Shown here: in pieces, positions 10,028-64,000 of the stretch
How the letters are laid out: each line of letters begins with the position of its first letter
Numbering within the stretch: position 1 is the first letter of the stretch
Source: Gemmatimonadota bacterium
Lineage (GTDB): Bacteria; Gemmatimonadota; Gemmatimonadetes; Gemmatimonadales; GWC2-71-9
DNA: 64,000 nucleotides
Reading direction: 5' to 3'
Assembly: GCA_003222085.1 (NCBI GenBank)
Contig: QHUK01000010.1
Span: 67,688 to 131,687, forward strand
Notes under the pieces: generated by a model
What the model saw: the letters and a program-made list of their open reading frames with translations, nothing else
The model's database searches: none
Told to the model about the DNA's origin: nothing
Position numbers and translations under genes: made by a program

Positions 10028-10046
10028 CGGGCCCCTCCCCCACCCC

Positions 10047-10150
10047 GAACGCGGAACGGGGAACGCGGAATGCGGAACAGAAGGGTAAGGTCGCTCGCAG
10101 CATGACGCTCCCCCCCATGTTCCGCGTTCCGCGTTCCGCCTTCCGCGTTC
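10047..10150. repeat. large imperfect hairpin with arms made of tandem GAACGCG-type heptamers
   Basis: Arm 10047-10078 pairs with arm 10119-10150 at 29 of 32 positions (aligned by hand), with a 40-nt loop. It lies between the MFS stop and the ATP-grasp start. Confidence 0.85.
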
Positions 10151-28328: not shown

Positions 28329-30197
28329 CTAGGCCACCCGTCGGCGCCAGCGGGCCGTTTCGACGACGAGATTGTGCAGATCGCTCGGCGACACGCCGGG
28401 AATTCGCGCCGCTTGAGAGAGGGAGGTCGGTCGAATCCGATCGAGCTTCTGGCGCGCTTCGGTGGCGAGACTCTGGAGCTCGAGGTAGGGAAGGTCTGCC
28501 GGGAGCGCAAACGCCGCGAGCTCGGCCAGCCGTGCCGCCGCCTCCCGCTCGCGCGCCAGATATCCCTCGTATTTCAAGTCGATCGCGGCGCTCACCACGG
28601 CGGCGTCGTCCGCCGCCACGGTCACGCCGGCCGCCTCGAGCAGCGCGCGCAGCGACACGCCCGGCCGCCGGGCCACGCTCGCGACTCGCTCAGGCTCTCC
28701 CAGCGTCGTGCCCGTGTCCGCCAGCACGGCCGCGGCAGCGGCCGGCGTGATCGTCGTCATGCGCGCCACGCGCAGCAACTCCTCCTCTTCCTCGAAACGG
28801 CGCGCTGCCACCCGCCACTCCGCCGCACTCAGTAACCCCAGGCGCTCGGCGAGCGGCGCCAGCCGCCGCAGGGCGTTGTCCTGCCGGAGCGATAGCCGAA
28901 ACTCGGAGCGCGACGTGAACAGCCGGTACGGCTCGTCCACCCCACGGGTCACGAGATCATCGACGAGGACGCCGATGTAGGCAGCGTCGCGTCCCAGGAT
29001 CACCGGCTCCGCGCCACGGATCCGGCGCACGGCGTTGATCCCCGCCACGACGCCCTGGCCGGCTGCCTCCTCGTATCCGGTCGTGCCGTTGATTTGCCCC
29101 GCGAAGAACAGGTGCTCCACGGCCTTCGTCTCGAGCCACGGCGTGAGCTGAGTCGGCGGATAATAGTCGTACTCGATGGCGTAACCCGGCCGGGTCATCT
29201 TGGCTCGCTCGAGACCCGGTACGGCGCGCAGGAACTCGAGCTGCACCGGGACGGGCAGGGAAGTGGACAGCCCGTTCACGTACAGCTCGTGCGTGTCGAG
29301 CCCCTCCGGTTCGAGGAACACCTGGTGCCGCTTAGCATCGGGGAACTTCACGATCTTGTCTTCGACCGAGGGACAATAGCGCGGGCCCCGTCCGCTGATC
29401 GCGCCGCCGTACAGCGCCGATTCCTTGAGATGCGCGCGGATGATCTCCTTCACTTCTTCCCCGGCCCATGTGATCCAGCAGGGCAGCTGACGTGGCAGCT
29501 CGACGCGGTCGTAGAACGAGAAGCGGTAGGGAGTGGCGTCTCCGTCCTGGCGCTCAAGCCTGGACCAATCGACGGTGCGGCCGTCCACTCGCGGCGGTGT
29601 ACCGGTCTTGAAGCGGGACACTGTAAGTCCAAGTTCCTCAACGTGTTGTGCGATATCGACGGCCGGCTGATCGCCGGCGCGCCCGGCGGGGATCTGGGTG
29701 TCGGTCCCCAGGTGGATGCGACCGCGGAGGAACGTGCCGGCGGTGAGCACGACGGCGTGCGCGCGGAAGCTGCGCCCGTCGGCTGTCACGACACCCGCGG
29801 CGCGCGTGCCGTCCGTGAGCAGACGCGTGACCATTCCCTGCGTGAGGTCCAGCTGCGAAAACCCTTCGAGCAGTGACCGCACGGCGCGGCGGTACAGCGT
29901 GCGGTCGCACTGGGCTCGGGGCGCCCAAACGGCGGGACCCTTGGAGCGATTGAGCATCCGGAACTGGATCGTCGCGCGATCGGTCGCCCGCCCCATGATC
30001 CCGCCGAGGGCATCGATCTCGCGCACGACGGTACCCTTCGCGATCCCGCCGATGGCGGGATTGCAGGACATCTGCCCAATCGTGTCGAGGTTCGACGTCA
30101 GCAGGAGGGTCCGGGCGCCCAAGCGAGCAGCCATGACCGACGCTTCGGTACCGGCGTGGCCGGCACCTACAACAACCACGTCATAGTCGTAGGACAT
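28329..30197 (-). CDS. mnmG: tRNA uridine 5-carboxymethylaminomethyl modification enzyme MnmG (GidA)
   Basis: DVVVVGAGHAGTEA and GQMSCNPAIGGIAKG; 622 aa. Confidence 0.95.
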   Translation of the reverse strand: MSYDYDVVVVGAGHAGTEASVMAARLGARTLLLTSNLDTIGQMSCNPAIGGIAKGTVVREIDALGGIMGRATDRATIQFRMLNRSKGPAVWAPRAQCDRTLYRRAVRSLLEGFSQLDLTQGMVTRLLTDGTRAAGVVTADGRSFRAHAVVLTAGTFLRGRIHLGTDTQIPAGRAGDQPAVDIAQHVEELGLTVSRFKTGTPPRVDGRTVDWSRLERQDGDATPYRFSFYDRVELPRQLPCWITWAGEEVKEIIRAHLKESALYGGAISGRGPRYCPSVEDKIVKFPDAKRHQVFLEPEGLDTHELYVNGLSTSLPVPVQLEFLRAVPGLERAKMTRPGYAIEYDYYPPTQLTPWLETKAVEHLFFAGQINGTTGYEEAAGQGVVAGINAVRRIRGAEPVILGRDAAYIGVLVDDLVTRGVDEPYRLFTSRSEFRLSLRQDNALRRLAPLAERLGLLSAAEWRVAARRFEEEEELLRVARMTTITPAAAAAVLADTGTTLGEPERVASVARRPGVSLRALLEAAGVTVAADDAAVVSAAIDLKYEGYLAREREAAARLAELAAFALPADLPYLELQSLATEARQKLDRIRPTSLSQAARIPGVSPSDLHNLVVETARWRRRVA

Positions 30198-30228
30198 GCG
30201 GACAAAGTACGTGAATGGGCAAGGCTAA

Positions 30229-30261
30229 GGCTAGACGCACAGACGCAGCAGGGGAGAACAG
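30229..30261. repeat. left inverted repeat of the four-helix-bundle cassette
   Basis: GGCTAGACGCACAGACGCAGCAGGGGAGAACAG. The reverse complement of 30721-30761 is identical except for an extra 8 nt. Confidence 0.85.
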
Positions 30262-30642
30262 TTAACGGGGCTTGGAGTCTCTCGATGAAGAATCGCTGAT
30301 CTTCCGGAGCAATCCGTAGAGAGTCTTGCTGGTCTCAATGGCAAGCGCCTCAAGCCGCCCATAGTCAGCGGGTTCTACGTACCCAACGTCACGGGCGATC
30401 TCCAAAGCGGTCTGCACTTCGGCGAGCGATGCCCACGCTGTGTCTAGATAGCGTCGATATTCTCGCGTGCCTCGCCGTGTACTCCCCTCGGCGATGTTCA
30501 GCGGAACGCTGTAGCAAGCGCGCCGTAGTTGATCGCCGAGGACTTCCTGTTCGTAGTCGGGAAAGCTACGCGCTGCCTTGACACATTCGACGGCGAGCCG
30601 CTGGGCATGCTGCCAGGCCTTCAGCTTCTGGTGCAGTGGCAT
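30262..30642 (-). CDS. four-helix-bundle protein (23S rRNA intervening-sequence protein family, PF05635/TIGR02436-like)
   Basis: 126 aa. QLRRACYSVPLNIAEG and ASLAEVQTALEIA fit the family pattern. GC is about 55% in the 100 nt I counted. Confidence 0.8.
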   Translation of the reverse strand: MPLHQKLKAWQHAQRLAVECVKAARSFPDYEQEVLGDQLRRACYSVPLNIAEGSTRRGTREYRRYLDTAWASLAEVQTALEIARDVGYVEPADYGRLEALAIETSKTLYGLLRKISDSSSRDSKPR

Positions 30643-30720
30643 GGGGGCAAGTTAGGGAACGCGAAGCGCTCCAGGGCATCGTTTCTACGCGGCGAGTACC
30701 TCTTTCCTGCCAACCCCAAC

Positions 30721-30795
30721 CTGTTCTCCCCAGTGCGTCTGCTGCGTCTGTGCGTCTAGCCTATCGTGCGTCTACTGCGCCTGGTGCGTCTAGCC
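30721..30795. repeat. right inverted repeat plus extra TGCGTCT units
   Basis: CTGTTCTCCCCAGTGCGTCTGCTGCGTCTGTGCGTCTAGCC (30721-30761). More TGCGTCT units and a second GTGCGTCTAGCC follow, ending at 30795. Confidence 0.85.
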
Positions 30796-30823
30796 TTTCG
30801 CGCTTCGGCGTCTCCCTCAACGT

Positions 30824-32086
30824 CTATGCTCTAACCCAGCGTATTAATTCGCGGAGATTCGGCCGTTTCCCCGTCATGAGGATCCCGACCCTGTATATCC
30901 TGGCAGCGATCCAGGTGACCGCCCCGATCCCCACCCCGAGCAGCGCCAGTGACATGACTAGCTCGCTTACGCTCACACTGCCCGCCGCCCAGCGCACGGG
31001 CATGGCGATCGGTGACGTGAATGGGACGAGCGACAACGCGACCGCGTAGGGAGAGCCCGGATCGTTCGCGAGCGCGAACACCGACAGGTAGGCGATCATG
31101 AGGAGGAAGACGACCGGCTGCTGCGCCTGGCGCGCCTCCTGCTCGCTGGAGGACATGGCGCCCACCGCCGCGAACATCGCCGAGTAGAGGAAAAAGCCGC
31201 CCAGGAAGTACCCGAGGAAGACCGCGACCGTCGTCGCCGGGACCGGCGGGAGCTGGAACGCCGCCTCCTGCCCGACATCCGCGGGCGCCACGTTGCCGAT
31301 GAGCGCGGCGCGCTGCGACAGGACCAGCCGCCCACCCAGACCCCAGATCGCGAATTGGAAGATCGACACGGCCCCGACCCCGACGACCTTGCCGAGCATC
31401 AGCTCGAACGGCCGCAGCGATGACACCAGGACTTCGACGATCCGCGTCGTCTTCTCCTCCAGCACGGAGCTCATCACGTTCACGCCGTAGACGGCGATCA
31501 CGATGAACAACACGATCGACATGACGTACGCGAGCCAGAACGATTGTGCCGAGCTTTCCCCCGTGGTGGCCGATCCTGAGATCTTCTTGGTCCGGAGGTC
31601 GATCCTGAGCTGCGCCCGGCCGACGGTGGCAGGATCCACACCCGCGCGCTCGAGCCGTGCGTTCACCGCGAGTCGACCGAGCACGCCCCGTAGCTCGTCG
31701 ATGTCGCGGAACGAAGACACGTTCGCCGCGCGATACTCGGCCGCGCCCGTCTCCACCGTCCGGTCCGCCAGAATGAGGAGCCCATCCAGCCGGTTGAGGC
31801 CGACTTCGCGGGTCAAAGAATCCAACAGCCCCGCGCGCGGAGCGGATCGGGCGACGATCATGAAGGTCTTGCCTCGCGCCAGCGAGTCTGCCACACGGGC
31901 GCCGAACCCCGACGTCGTGCCGTCCACCACGACGATGGCCTTGGTACCGCCGGCGGCGGCAAAGTGCAGGGGGATGATGATGATCGCGGCAAAGAAGAGG
32001 GGGCCCAGGATGGCCGAGACCCAGAACCATTTGCTCCGTACGCGCTCGACAAACTCGCGCCGGATTACCGCCCGGATCTTACGCAC
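30824..32086 (-). CDS. ABC-2 type transporter permease (NatB-like)
   Basis: N-terminal TM helix, a large extracytoplasmic loop, then 5 C-terminal TM helices. The start overlaps the ATPase stop by 8 nt. Confidence 0.8.
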   Translation of the reverse strand: MRKIRAVIRREFVERVRSKWFWVSAILGPLFFAAIIIIPLHFAAAGGTKAIVVVDGTTSGFGARVADSLARGKTFMIVARSAPRAGLLDSLTREVGLNRLDGLLILADRTVETGAAEYRAANVSSFRDIDELRGVLGRLAVNARLERAGVDPATVGRAQLRIDLRTKKISGSATTGESSAQSFWLAYVMSIVLFIVIAVYGVNVMSSVLEEKTTRIVEVLVSSLRPFELMLGKVVGVGAVSIFQFAIWGLGGRLVLSQRAALIGNVAPADVGQEAAFQLPPVPATTVAVFLGYFLGGFFLYSAMFAAVGAMSSSEQEARQAQQPVVFLLMIAYLSVFALANDPGSPYAVALSLVPFTSPIAMPVRWAAGSVSVSELVMSLALLGVGIGAVTWIAARIYRVGILMTGKRPNLRELIRWVRA

Positions 32087-33041
32087 GCACCGCCTCCGCC
32101 CCGACCAGGTCGATGAAGATCTTGTTCAACGACGCCTCTTGCAGCTCGAACCTGGACAGCCGCGCCCCCGATGCCACGAGTCGCTGGAGGATCTGCTGGG
32201 GGTCGGCGCCGGCCGCGAGCTCGACCTCGGCATATTGCCCATAGTTGTCCACGTTGCTCACCAGGGTCTGGTCGGCGAACACTTGCGCCGCCCCGCCCAG
32301 GCTCCCATCGAACCCGAGGACGAGATGGTGCCCACCATGTGTCCGCTTGATGTCCGCGAGCGCGCCGTCCACCAGCTTCCGTCCGCGCGCGATGATGCAC
32401 AACTGCTCGCACAGCTTCTCGGCCTGCTCCATGATGTGGGTCGAGAACAGGATCGTCTTCCCGCGATGGCGCAAGTCGAGCACCGTGTCCTTCATCACCT
32501 GAGTATTGACGGGATCGAGCCCCGAGAAGGGCTCGTCGAGAACCAGGAGATCCGGGTCGTGGAGCACGGTCGAAATGAACTGCACCTTTTGTTGCATCCC
32601 CTTGGACAACTCGTCGATCCGTCGCAGTCGCCACTCGGTGAGGCCGAGTCGCGCGAGCCATTCCTCAGCCCGCTGACGCGCCCGCCGTCGATCGGTGCCT
32701 TTCATCTCGCCGAGAAAGACGAGAACGTCGAGCACCCGCATCTTGCGGTACAGGCCGCGCTCCTCGGGGAGGTAGCCGATCCGCTCCGCGTGGGCTCGCC
32801 CCCCGCCCGGCTCGCCGAATACGCGCACGGTGCCGCCGTCGGGCTCCAGGATGTCCATGATCATGCGAAGCGTGGTCGTTTTCCCGGCGCCGTTCGGCCC
32901 GAGCAGGCCGTAAATCACGCCACTGGGCACGGACAACGACAACTCATCGACGGCGGTGTGACCGGCGAAGCGTTTGCTGACCCGATCGAGGATCAGGATC
33001 GGGGTAGGGGAGGGAGAGGGGGAGGGGGAGGGCGCCGTCAT
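32079..33041 (-). CDS. ABC transporter ATP-binding protein (NatA-like)
   Basis: Walker A GPNGAGKTTT, signature LSKGMQQK, Walker B LLVLDEP. Confidence 0.9.
   Translation of the reverse strand: MTAPSPSPSPSPTPILILDRVSKRFAGHTAVDELSLSVPSGVIYGLLGPNGAGKTTTLRMIMDILEPDGGTVRVFGEPGGGRAHAERIGYLPEERGLYRKMRVLDVLVFLGEMKGTDRRRARQRAEEWLARLGLTEWRLRRIDELSKGMQQKVQFISTVLHDPDLLVLDEPFSGLDPVNTQVMKDTVLDLRHRGKTILFSTHIMEQAEKLCEQLCIIARGRKLVDGALADIKRTHGGHHLVLGFDGSLGGAAQVFADQTLVSNVDNYGQYAEVELAAGADPQQILQRLVASGARLSRFELQEASLNKIFIDLVGAEAVRA
33001..33030. repeat. hexanucleotide tandem repeat (GGGGAG-like x5)
   Basis: Encodes the PSPSPSPSPTP tail at the N-terminus of the ABC ATPase. Confidence 0.8.
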
Positions 33042-36077: not shown

Positions 36078-36861
<784 letters not shown>

Positions 36862-36865
<4 letters not shown>

Positions 36866-39625: not shown

Positions 39626-41080
<1,455 letters not shown>

Positions 41081-53827: not shown

Positions 53828-54807
53828 GGTGCGGGCTCCGGCTGCGGAACAGGCACCGCAAACGTATGCCAAAAAACCACGCGTTGCACGTTGCGCGTTG
53901 CACGACGCATGAGAAAGGCGAAGGCTTTAGCGCCGTAGGTGGCATCCAAGACGAGGCCATGCTGCAACGCAAGCCGGCCGGCGGCCTCGCCCTCCGGTGT
54001 TGGGTGGCCGTAGCCCGGCCCCAACCCGTCCACTACGACCAGCGGGATGCGGGATGCGGGAAGCGGGATGCGGATGTCGTGACGCGCGAGGAGCCGCCGT
54101 GCGGCGTACGCGAGCCACGTCGTCCGCCAGCGGTTGGCGACGAAGATCGGCGCGACGCGGACGCCCACGATCCGGGTCGGCCAGCCCAGCGCGGCGACGG
54201 CGAGGGCGAGGCCCGCCGCCGTCCCGCCGGTACCGAGCGGGAGAACGATCGCGTCCGGCGGCGCGGCGACCTGCGAGGCGAGCTCCAACCCCCCGAGCAG
54301 CTGGCCCACCACCGCGCGGGGATGCGCGCCCCCGCCCGGAATCCAGCGACGCGGGCCGAGTGCACCTGCGCGACGCCACGCGGCGAGCACCGCGAGCGGC
54401 AGCGATCCCCTCACCCGAGCGCGAACGACGAGCGCCGCCTGCGCCCGGCAGGCGGCGGCCACGGCGCGGCTCGCGGGAGTGTCGTGCTGCGGGAACTGCG
54501 CCAGCACCGCGCGGCCGCCGACGGCGGCGGCGTGCACGGCGGTCGCGAGGCAGTGAGTCGAGCCGGTGCCGCCCAGGGTGACGAATACCGTGTCGGGCGG
54601 CGCGCCCGCAAACAAGAACTCGAGCCCGCGCACCTTGTTCCCCCCACAGGACGCGGACGCGCGATCCTCCCGCTTCAGGGCGAGCTCGGCCACGCCGATG
54701 GCGCTGGCGAGCCCAGGAGCCGGCTCGAGCGGCGTAGGCCAGTCACCCAGGCTACAAGGCGCCAGCGTCGCACGTATCTTTTCAATCAGCTGTGCCGGAT
54801 CCGACAC
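53824..54807 (-). CDS. PLP enzyme of the ACC deaminase / D-cysteine desulfhydrase family
   Basis: SCGGNKVRGLEF (PLP lysine context) and LPLGTGGTAAG. Confidence 0.75.
   Translation of the reverse strand: MSDPAQLIEKIRATLAPCSLGDWPTPLEPAPGLASAIGVAELALKREDRASASCGGNKVRGLEFLFAGAPPDTVFVTLGGTGSTHCLATAVHAAAVGGRAVLAQFPQHDTPASRAVAAACRAQAALVVRARVRGSLPLAVLAAWRRAGALGPRRWIPGGGAHPRAVVGQLLGGLELASQVAAPPDAIVLPLGTGGTAAGLALAVAALGWPTRIVGVRVAPIFVANRWRTTWLAYAARRLLARHDIRIPLPASRIPLVVVDGLGPGYGHPTPEGEAAGRLALQHGLVLDATYGAKAFAFLMRRATRNVQRVVFWHTFAVPVPQPEPAP
54044..54073. repeat. GGGATGC heptamer run / G-quadruplex motif
   Basis: GGGATGC GGGATGC GGGAAGC GGGATGC GG on the plus strand, inside the minus-strand PLP-enzyme gene. 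Confidence 0.8.
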
Positions 54808-63922: not shown

Positions 63923-63940
63923 GATGCAGGAAGGCAACAC

Positions 63941-63970
63941 CTAGACGCACAGACGCACAGGGGTGAACAG
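63941..63970. repeat. additional copy of the cassette repeat
   Basis: CTAGACGCACAGACGCACAGGGGTGAACAG differs from 30231-30261 by one indel and one mismatch. Confidence 0.8.
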
Positions 63971-64000
63971 TGAGAGTGAACAGGTAGTCCCATTCACTGC

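Follow-up and report, generated by a model that had tools for sequence, protein, structure and literature searches.

The DNA analyzed here is a 64-kb window (64,000 nucleotides, nt) from a Gemmatimonadota bacterium (GenBank assembly GCA_003222085.1, contig QHUK01000010.1, positions 67,688 to 131,687). Between an ABC-2 permease gene and mnmG it carries a small cassette, in which a gene for a four-helix-bundle protein and its leader are enclosed by two inverted arrays of short tandem repeats. The gene, an open reading frame (ORF) of 126 amino acids (aa), belongs to the "23S rRNA IVS protein" family, IVS standing for intervening sequence, and is the sole ORF between the start of mnmG (30197) and the stop of the permease gene (30824). 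It lies in a run of genes on one strand, comprising an ABC ATPase gene, the ABC-2 permease gene, the 126-aa ORF, mnmG, parA, and parB. The safest statement about this locus is that it holds an IVS-type PF05635 cassette outside rRNA. The features on which the analysis rests are the following:

28329 to 30197, minus strand: mnmG, on the same strand as the ORF.
30228 to 30261, minus strand: downstream (3') arm, in ORF sense CTGTTCTCCCC TGCTGCGTCT GTGCGTCT AGCCT, complementary to the upstream arm.
30262 to 30642, minus strand: four-helix-bundle ORF, 126 aa, PF05635/TIGR02436.
30649 to 30654, minus strand: TAACTT, a putative -10-like TAnnnT box from the leader alignment.
30675 to 30700, minus strand: weak 7-bp hairpin, a degenerate copy of the leader hairpin of orthologues.
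30721 to 30797, minus strand: upstream (5') repeat region in ORF and operon sense, with inverted and direct repeats (arm alignment).
30824 to 32086, minus strand: ABC-2 permease gene, on the same strand as the ORF.
63932 to 64000, plus strand: left arm (63932 to 63970, AGGCAACACCTAGACGCACAGACGCACAGGGGTGAACAG) and loop start of an ORF-less hairpin of the same arm type as the cassette.

The family assignment, already proposed in an initial annotation of this DNA, holds by both profiles and by a structural relative: the ORF matches PF05635 over profile positions 1 to 106 of 106 (E = 2.3e-30; 105.4 bits, cutoff 33.8), TIGR02436 (E = 1.2e-28; 99.5 bits, cutoff 24), and Xanthomonas XCC0516 (PDB accession no. 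2GSC; E = 3.1e-17). Residues N49, A51, E52, and G53 of the NIAEG-type core are invariant in alignments with distant members. The same annotation had described a fall in GC content from about 70% to about 55%. The dip is real but smaller, with 59.3% in the ORF (65% at third codon positions, GC3) and 59.9% in the spacer versus 66 to 69% in the neighbors (mnmG, 68.6%, GC3 83%; permease gene, 66.2%, GC3 87%) and 68.4% in the whole window. Neither rRNA, tRNA, nor any Rfam family was found in the 64 kb, nor was a second PF05635 gene (phmmer on six-frame ORFs), and the search with anti-phage defence profiles (PADLOC) gave no match.

The stop codon of the ORF adjoins the downstream arm. The upstream pairing arm (30721 to 30762; GGCTAGACGCAC AGACGCAGC AGACGCACT GGGGAGAACAG) is built from 8- to 9-nt AGACGCA units and an inner GGGGAGAACAG. 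Pairing is 100% complementary in two blocks, 30228 to 30251 with 30739 to 30762 (24 nt) and 30251 to 30261 with 30721 to 30731 (11 nt), and an extra 8-nt unit in the right-hand arm forms a bulge. Additional GTGCGTCT units and a second GTGCGTCTAGCC extend to 30797 as an outer 34-nt duplication, whose copy number differs between strains (L002, L006, and L010). In transcript sense, six AGACGCA(S) units thus lie upstream and two complementary ones downstream, and the 12-mer GGCTAGACGCAC, allowing at most one mismatch, occurs three times, always at the cassette locus, versus 0.53 expected. To score such repeats we aligned locally the 200 nt upstream of the gene with the reverse complement of the 200 nt downstream, took a score of at least 30 as the threshold, and used shifted pseudo-genes within the same loci as controls. 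The window locus scores 49, versus a median of 19 for its shifted controls. In the predicted fold of the 626-nt minus-strand RNA, the arms make up the closing stem around leader and ORF (z = -5.35; equaled in 0 of 20 shuffles), and they are predicted to pair in any read-through RNA that crosses the cassette. The elements that the initial annotation had read from this spacer, namely flanking inverted repeats (now 30228 to 30261 and 30721 to 30762), a single extra 8-nt unit in the right arm, further units with a second copy (reaching 30797), and a predicted enclosing RNA stem, are thus all recovered. Readings of the units as parS sites or DnaA boxes were dropped, as by eye they resemble neither consensus.

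The leader between the upstream arm and the ORF holds two further elements. In the window, the TAnnnT box stands 6 nt before the ATG (TAACTT-GCCCCC-ATG) and there is no Shine-Dalgarno sequence. Across orthologues, the A at position 2 and the T at position 6 are conserved to at least 90%, and the box lies 6 to 9 nt before the ATG. We read it as a putative cassette-internal promoter that would give a leaderless mRNA; a scan with the strict sigma-70 consensus returned no full promoter. In many orthologues, the leader alignment and single-sequence folds also reveal a GC-rich hairpin with a 10- to 20-bp stem followed by a T-run, similar to a terminator. Specified by hand, this hairpin is 67% paired versus 58% in shuffles (0 of 500), and its covariation score is 0.343 versus 0.217, with values of at most 0.158 when the partners are slid; RNAalifold alone gave no consensus structure for the leader. 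We regard a conserved leader hairpin in the orthologues as moderately supported.

Both gene and repeats are old residents of this site. The exact window protein occurs in many soil-metagenome contigs and in a Gemmatimonadetes metagenome-assembled genome, always between the permease gene and mnmG, and in structure these contigs vary only in the copy number of the outer 34-nt repeat unit. Protein homologues number 922 at E < 1e-5, the top 120 all being at least 72% identical, and a scan of species-representative genomes gave 80 loci, nearly all from Gemmatimonadales, in which, given enough flank, the four-helix-bundle gene is followed by mnmG and usually preceded by the permease gene. With gene and repeats syntenic in about 80 Gemmatimonadales genomes, a recent insertion at the permease-mnmG site, as the initial annotation had pictured it, is not borne out. 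That annotation had also raised the prospect of relatives that carry the gene without inverted repeats; the repeats are kept in 64 of the 76 testable Gemmatimonadales loci, versus 2 of 273 shifted controls. The geometry is conserved as well: in orthologues the upstream arm ends 64 to 119 nt before the ATG (median, 78.5) and the downstream arm starts between -3 and 21 nt from the stop codon (median, 5). Arm types differ by lineage (GGCTAGACGCACAGACGCA..., TAGACGGGTAGACGGCGAGACGG..., AGACGCCTAGACGCCGAGACGCC..., and GCCGAGCCGCCGAGACGCTGAGTGG...), yet within each locus both arms match. Because the sequence varies while complementarity persists, the arms must change in concert.

The ORF itself is under strong purifying selection, with no internal stop in any of 81 orthologous ORFs and pairwise dN/dS values of 0.01 to 0.06. 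Its tree conflicts with that of mnmG, and the arm type tracks the clade of the four-helix-bundle gene, not the mnmG tree. For example, L088 shares 91% identity with the window copy in mnmG and 70% in the ORF, while for L020 the values are 79% and 93%. Together with an ORF GC3 about 11 points under that of mnmG across orthologues, this conflict indicates that cassette alleles, arms plus gene, seem to have been exchanged as units between genomes. The window permease, for its part, shares only about 60% identity with its counterparts in genomes where identity reaches 91 to 92% for mnmG and 90 to 93% for the four-helix-bundle gene, and such mosaic identities of permease, ORF, and mnmG suggest frequent recombination around the locus. 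A different gene lies upstream of the cassette in L024, L029, L075, L092, and L097.

In some lineages the cassette has been turned around in place. In L019, L020, L021, L030, L053, and L097, the ORF is opposite in strand to the permease gene and mnmG. When these loci are viewed in operon orientation, the arms stand unchanged in their usual places, whereas leader and ORF are reversed, with the stop codon still adjoining the ...CTGTTCTCCCC arm, so that the breakpoints of the inversion must lie within the arms. Independent gene calls on ten further contigs of one inverted lineage (protein P0012) returned the inverted state in all ten. On the ORF tree, inverted loci are scattered over at least four positions, and these at least four in-place inversions, as read from the compared loci, show that the arms recombine in DNA. 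The five scorable inverted loci have inverted-repeat scores of 73 to 99 versus a median of 47 for the 71 co-oriented loci (p = 1.3e-4), of which only two reach 73; long arms in flipped loci fit homology-driven recombination between the arms. The ORF remains selected after inversion (dN/dS of 0.01 to 0.05 at dS of 0.4 to 0.8 in an inverted clade), from which expression in the inverted orientation follows, implying a promoter within the flipped segment. We also observed that in inverted loci the repeat continues beyond its tandem units, on the mnmG side, into sequence that copies the 3' end of the permease gene (14 of 16 nt; L021:2790-3490 in operon orientation), which looks like repeat expansion by gene conversion.

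Given these inversions, the arms might be thought to act in DNA only. A small element, mobile or invertible, would have them as its terminal inverted repeats or its recombination sites, a recombinase or transposase encoded in trans, or RecA, would act on them, and any RNA pairing would be incidental. The breakpoints within the arms and the finding that flipped loci have the longest arms speak for this explanation, which we nevertheless judge unlikely. Where the same architecture occurs in 23S rRNA, functional ribosomes require that it be taken out of the RNA, and RNase III demonstrably does this (PMC4990558). Moreover, the called genes within 6 kb on either side of the cassette in ten contigs (suf genes, the ABC transporter, mnmG, parA, parB, an M23 peptidase gene, and a bactofilin gene) include no recombinase, transposase, invertase, or reverse transcriptase (RT). 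Target-site duplications were not seen, and the site is stable across about 80 genomes. Orientation, too, is uniform in each population sampled: all ten contigs with the exact window protein are co-oriented, the P0012 and P0002 populations are each uniform, and a scan of metagenome contigs for inverted-state junctions gave 0 matches. Fast phase variation is thus unsupported, and we take the inversions as rare evolutionary flipping rather than as a demonstrated switch.

Next, we asked how far this architecture extends beyond the Gemmatimonadales locus. Five loci with distant homologues (29 to 47% identity) were taken from plasmids, namely, a Gemmatirosa plasmid, Picosynechococcus PCC 7003 (cas10/cmr3), Anabaena 90 (cas6/cas4), Azospirillum lipoferum, and Riemerella. 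Each of the five lies between inverted arrays of 7- to 8-nt tandem units (GGAGGGCA, GGAGATAA, AGGTGAC, GAGGACR, and AAGGTTY). The Azospirillum copy (L102) is located inside a complete 23S rRNA gene and is therefore a genuine IVS; it and the published Coxiella IVS are built alike, which agrees with the IVS-like architecture that the initial annotation had proposed for the window. In a set of 78 diverse loci, consisting of the five plasmid loci and otherwise of metagenomic ones, 52 (67%) reach the threshold versus 2 of 214 shifted controls (0.9%), and on viral contigs 28 of 40 loci (70%) do so versus 0 of 144. The period of the units is 7 nt in 40 of 47 diverse and 26 of 28 viral-contig loci, and they share the form AG-K-K-N-N-C, typically AGNNNNC. 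Only two of 79 diverse loci lie within 23S rRNA, so a non-rRNA context is the rule; the lack of nearby rRNA, which had been singled out at the window and is true for its 64 kb, is not unusual.

Some further observations came from the diverse set. The strand of the AG-type arm relative to the ORF was abandoned as a measure, since an inverted repeat is symmetric under reverse complementation and carries no such information. By a crude ORF heuristic, neighbors are on the strand of the ORF in 45 of 56 cases upstream and in 35 of 54 downstream. Such rates are close to the usual bacterial background and hence uninformative. In Anabaena 90, the annotated start of cas4 takes in the downstream (GTCACCT)n array (L101:2899-2965), and the true start is probably the ATG just past the array. 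About 1.9 kb downstream of one PF05635 gene of this set we noted a match to the Acido-Lenti-1 small RNA (L150:2303-2348; 55.7 bits).

The constant period raises the question of whether the arrays are read by the protein encoded between them. Under this hypothesis, a ring-shaped PF05635 oligomer would bind one unit per subunit, in the manner of TRAP with its spaced GAG/UAG triplets. Its target would be RNA or single-stranded DNA, and the effect would be either autoregulation of the cassette or the shielding or exposure of the stem. Several findings are in line with it: the 7-nt period, the AG..C/CAG rule, which goes beyond the needs of pairing (CAG in 25 of 47 units versus 6.1 +/- 2.2 expected), and the covariation of arm type with the clade of the four-helix-bundle gene. 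In addition, the closest solved relative, Xcc0516 (2GSC), is described as an assembly of five four-helix bundles, and a Nostoc preprint postulates a protein partner for heptamer repeats. Avd, the relative found in diversity-generating retroelements (DGRs), binds nucleic acid. We nonetheless consider this hypothesis quite improbable. The units of the window lineage have 8 to 9 nt rather than 7, and the covariation would be expected anyway from the physical linkage of arms and gene. Besides, the window contains ORF-less hairpins of other unit types with no cognate gene nearby.

Two of these hairpins are complete within the window. At 10045 to 10150, the inverted heptamer arrays (GGAACGC)n and (GTTCCGC)n enclose some 40 nt of loop and fold into a long hairpin (z = -9.2). 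At 39640 to 39733, just upstream of an AAGGAG-ATG gene start, the arrays are (AGCGGGG)n and (CCCCGCT)n and the loop measures about 45 nt (z = -7.3). Solo heptamer arrays with no complementary partner within 800 nt were also seen, at 36830 to 36862 ((CCTTTCC)x4), 53880 to 53904 ((CGTTGCA)x3), and 54040 to 54073 ((GCGGGAT)x4.6). A (GGGGAG)n repeat at 33007 to 33035 falls in the 5' portion of the ABC ATPase coding sequence and gives the protein an N-terminal SPSPSPSP tail. The ORF-less hairpins would suit an explanation by incidental association, in which inverted tandem-repeat hairpins are ordinary intergenic terminators, mRNA stabilizers, or repeats like the repetitive extragenic palindromic (REP) or short tandemly repeated repetitive (STRR) sequences, and the gene just happens to sit in the loop; indeed, the STRR hairpins of cyanobacteria are known independently of any gene (PMC2670836). 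We give this explanation very little credence, however. Inverted arrays accompany the gene in three independent sets of loci at 67 to 84% versus 0 to 1% of shifted pseudo-genes, these sets span phyla and contexts including 23S rRNA, and the geometry to start and stop codons is fixed. Likewise, a search for arm coevolution in trans found no other long hairpins in 392 kb of cassette flanks from other species.

The ORF-less hairpin that begins at 63932 differs from those two in sharing the arm type of the cassette. Its right arm falls just past the window end, and the cassette and this hairpin, a same-arm pair, are 33 kb from each other. In contigs that continue beyond the window end, the complete ORF-less element (L202:5784-5925) has perfect arms of 25 nt and a core loop of 33 nt (hairpin fold, z = -7.95). 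Among all loci compared, the 17-mer arm core occurs only in the cassette arms and in the same-arm ORF-less element, a relation like that between a miniature inverted-repeat transposable element (MITE) and its parent, and one that also speaks for the DNA-only explanation.

Related plasmids with filled and empty sites, which likewise favor an action in DNA, offer a second sign of mobility, and the persistently lower GC3 of the ORF relative to its neighbors is a further hint. Picosynechococcus PCC 7002 has a gap of 12 nt between cas10 and cmr3, where PCC 7003 has a cassette of about 430 nt (flanks 88% identical). In Dolichospermum UHCC 0315A, an unrelated spacer of 245 nt takes the place of the 840 nt of arrays plus ORF found in Anabaena 90 (flanks 98.7% identical). 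Thus, this kind of cassette appears to be mobile elsewhere, and of the mobile cassette envisaged by the initial annotation this part stands, with the ORF-less copy and the cyanobacterial sites behind it, while recent insertion at the window site does not. No target-site duplication is evident either at the window cassette or at the PCC 7003/PCC 7002 pair, where the 3' end of cas10 is remodeled. There, the last cas10 codons differ between the filled and the empty site (L100:2441-2476 versus L185), and at the left edge of the PCC 7003 cassette there is a tandem duplication of a 16-nt stretch, GAATTTGAGGAGATAA, in which the cas10 stop codon lies. The Dolichospermum spacer (L184:1124-1368) has a 13-nt inverted repeat of its own (GTAGGTTGGGTTG ... 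CAACCCAACCTAC) around about 200 nt of unrelated sequence and may be another small element in the same site.

One may speculate, with low confidence, that PF05635 genes and inverted heptamer arrays together form one large, unrecognized superfamily of small mobile elements. Full cassettes would then be its autonomous members, and ORF-less inverted-array hairpins, including ORF-less 23S IVSs, STRR hairpins, and the window hairpins at 10045 to 10150, 39640 to 39733, and 63932 onward, its nonautonomous ones. A ring-shaped oligomer would recognize the periodic AG..C units, each subunit taking one in the way of TRAP, and, by analogy with Avd, might recruit a polymerase, an RT, or a nuclease to propagate, homogenize, or flip the element. 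If this were true, the labels "CRISPR-associated" (clustered regularly interspaced short palindromic repeats) and "rRNA-associated" would merely reflect where elements have landed.

The reading that we prefer is more restrained and combines both levels: a long-resident, IVS-type cassette whose arms pair in read-through RNA and recombine in DNA. We put its probability at roughly 55%. The module, comprising the PF05635 four-helix-bundle gene, its own leader, and the two inverted short-tandem-repeat arrays, would be the same kind of element as the ORF-bearing IVSs of 23S rRNA, placed here between an ABC-2 permease gene and mnmG. Its gene would be expressed from the cassette-internal promoter, probably as a leaderless mRNA, and would therefore work in either orientation. 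In a read-through RNA that contains both arms, the cassette would be closed off by a duplex of about 35 bp, and as this is the form that RNase III cuts in 23S IVSs, we propose that the cassette can be excised from the host transcript. Recombination between the arms in DNA would keep them alike, which would account for their concerted change, and would occasionally flip the cassette, while the same-arm ORF-less hairpins would be its miniature derivatives. Such a cassette would presumably have some means of spread between sites.

Several observations weigh against this combined model. That the window stem is a substrate of RNase III is presumed by analogy with 23S IVSs and Correia elements. The terminator-like hairpin of many orthologues sits between the upstream arm and the ORF, and if termination there were efficient, both arms would rarely be on one RNA. 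Mismatches between arms, counted on the sense strand, show no bias toward G.U pairs (51 versus 53, with 122 transversions), and the CAG rule described above, not being required by base pairing, points to a sequence-specific partner. Mismatch pattern, terminator-like hairpin, and CAG periodicity together count against a purely RNA-level role, and both the first and the last of them fit the DNA-only explanation. On the DNA side, no orientation polymorphism was seen within populations, in assemblies that show majority states only, and no target-site duplication, transposase, or invertase was identified near the cassette, which has stayed at the permease-mnmG site across about 80 genomes.

What is already known about these elements comes in three separate parts, namely, the IVSs with their ORF, 23S_rRNA_IVP genes in cas loci, and STRR heptamer hairpins. 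rRNA IVSs with a conserved ORF have been described since about 1990, and their origin and function are still regarded as unclear (PMC4990558); 23S_rRNA_IVP genes in cas loci have been observed as CRISPR-associated (PMC3936711). In a search of the openly accessible literature, we found no description of inverted tandem arrays as a family-wide rule outside rRNA, nor of in-place inversion or of ORF-less derivatives with the same arms. By our results, the copies in rRNA make up only a small part of a far larger class whose members share a single fixed architecture. They also bear on the CRISPR association: since close relatives of at least two cas operons lack the gene, with one site simply empty and the other holding an unrelated spacer, insertion fits better than a role as a Cas component. 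The cassettes are recognizable from sequence alone, and the family can now be tested through its arms, units, putative internal promoter, flipping, and ORF-less derivatives. For the host, such cassettes may be a cause of cuts in operon transcripts or a source of promoters for genes downstream, such as mnmG-parAB at this locus.

Among known systems, the closest are the 23S IVSs of Leptospira, Coxiella, Brucella, the Xanthomonas type, and Azospirillum L102, in which a PF05635 ORF of about 120 aa also lies within a stem of about 28 to 40 bp. Short tandem units with copy numbers that vary between strains are a further likeness, as seen in the AGACGCA units and the 34-nt difference of the window. 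In the Coxiella IVS, the terminal stem measures 28 bp and the heptamers, GACAGAT (= AGATGAC), vary in number between strains; RNase III excises this IVS in vitro, and its ends were mapped within the stem by rapid amplification of cDNA ends (PMC4990558). The Coxiella ORF is reportedly in decay and probably not translated (PMC4990558), in contrast to the window ORF with its strong purifying selection. The window cassette further differs from 23S IVSs in lying between protein-coding genes rather than in helix 25 or 45 of a 23S rRNA gene, in its 8- to 9-nt rather than 7-nt units, and in its leader of about 78 nt with a hairpin and a -10-like box. Cassettes of its type have also been flipped in place several times, and their processing by RNase III is presumed by analogy.

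The hairpins at L202:5784-5925, 10045 to 10150, and 39640 to 39733 resemble MITEs of the Correia/NEMIS type from Neisseria. According to one account (PMC2649163), these are short inverted-repeat elements within transcription units, whose hairpins RNase III binds or cleaves, with effects on neighboring genes. However, Correia elements have fixed inverted repeats of about 26 bp, target-site duplications, more than 100 copies, and no gene, whereas here the arms consist of tandem units, the full element has a conserved gene, and a target-site duplication was not seen. With invertons (fim, hin, and the Mpi type of Bacteroides), the cassette shares a segment between inverted repeats that occurs in both orientations with breakpoints in the repeats. 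In contrast to them, its orientation differs between species or lineages and was not seen to differ within populations, no invertase gene was called in the neighborhood covered above, and what is flipped is not a promoter but an entire gene together with its leader. Inversion of the cassette also correlates with arm length, as homology-driven recombination predicts.

A DGR review cites PF05635 for Avd, and the 126-aa protein belongs to the same four-helix-bundle superfamily, as its weak NF033474 match indicates. A reading of the protein as this DGR accessory protein was nonetheless rejected, because the match (16.4 bits) falls far below the cutoff of 80 and the neighborhood contains neither an RT gene nor a template/variable repeat pair.

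Finally, the STRR sequences of cyanobacteria are intergenic tandem 7-bp units able to form hairpins between genes (PMC2670836). They have been described as repeats in their own right, without a link to PF05635 genes, and the window differs from them in its unit length and in its Gemmatimonadales host. The (AGGTGAC)n/(GTCACCT)n arrays of the Anabaena 90 cassette, however, are of the STRR type, and the cassettes thereby provide a candidate link to these unexplained cyanobacterial heptamer repeats.

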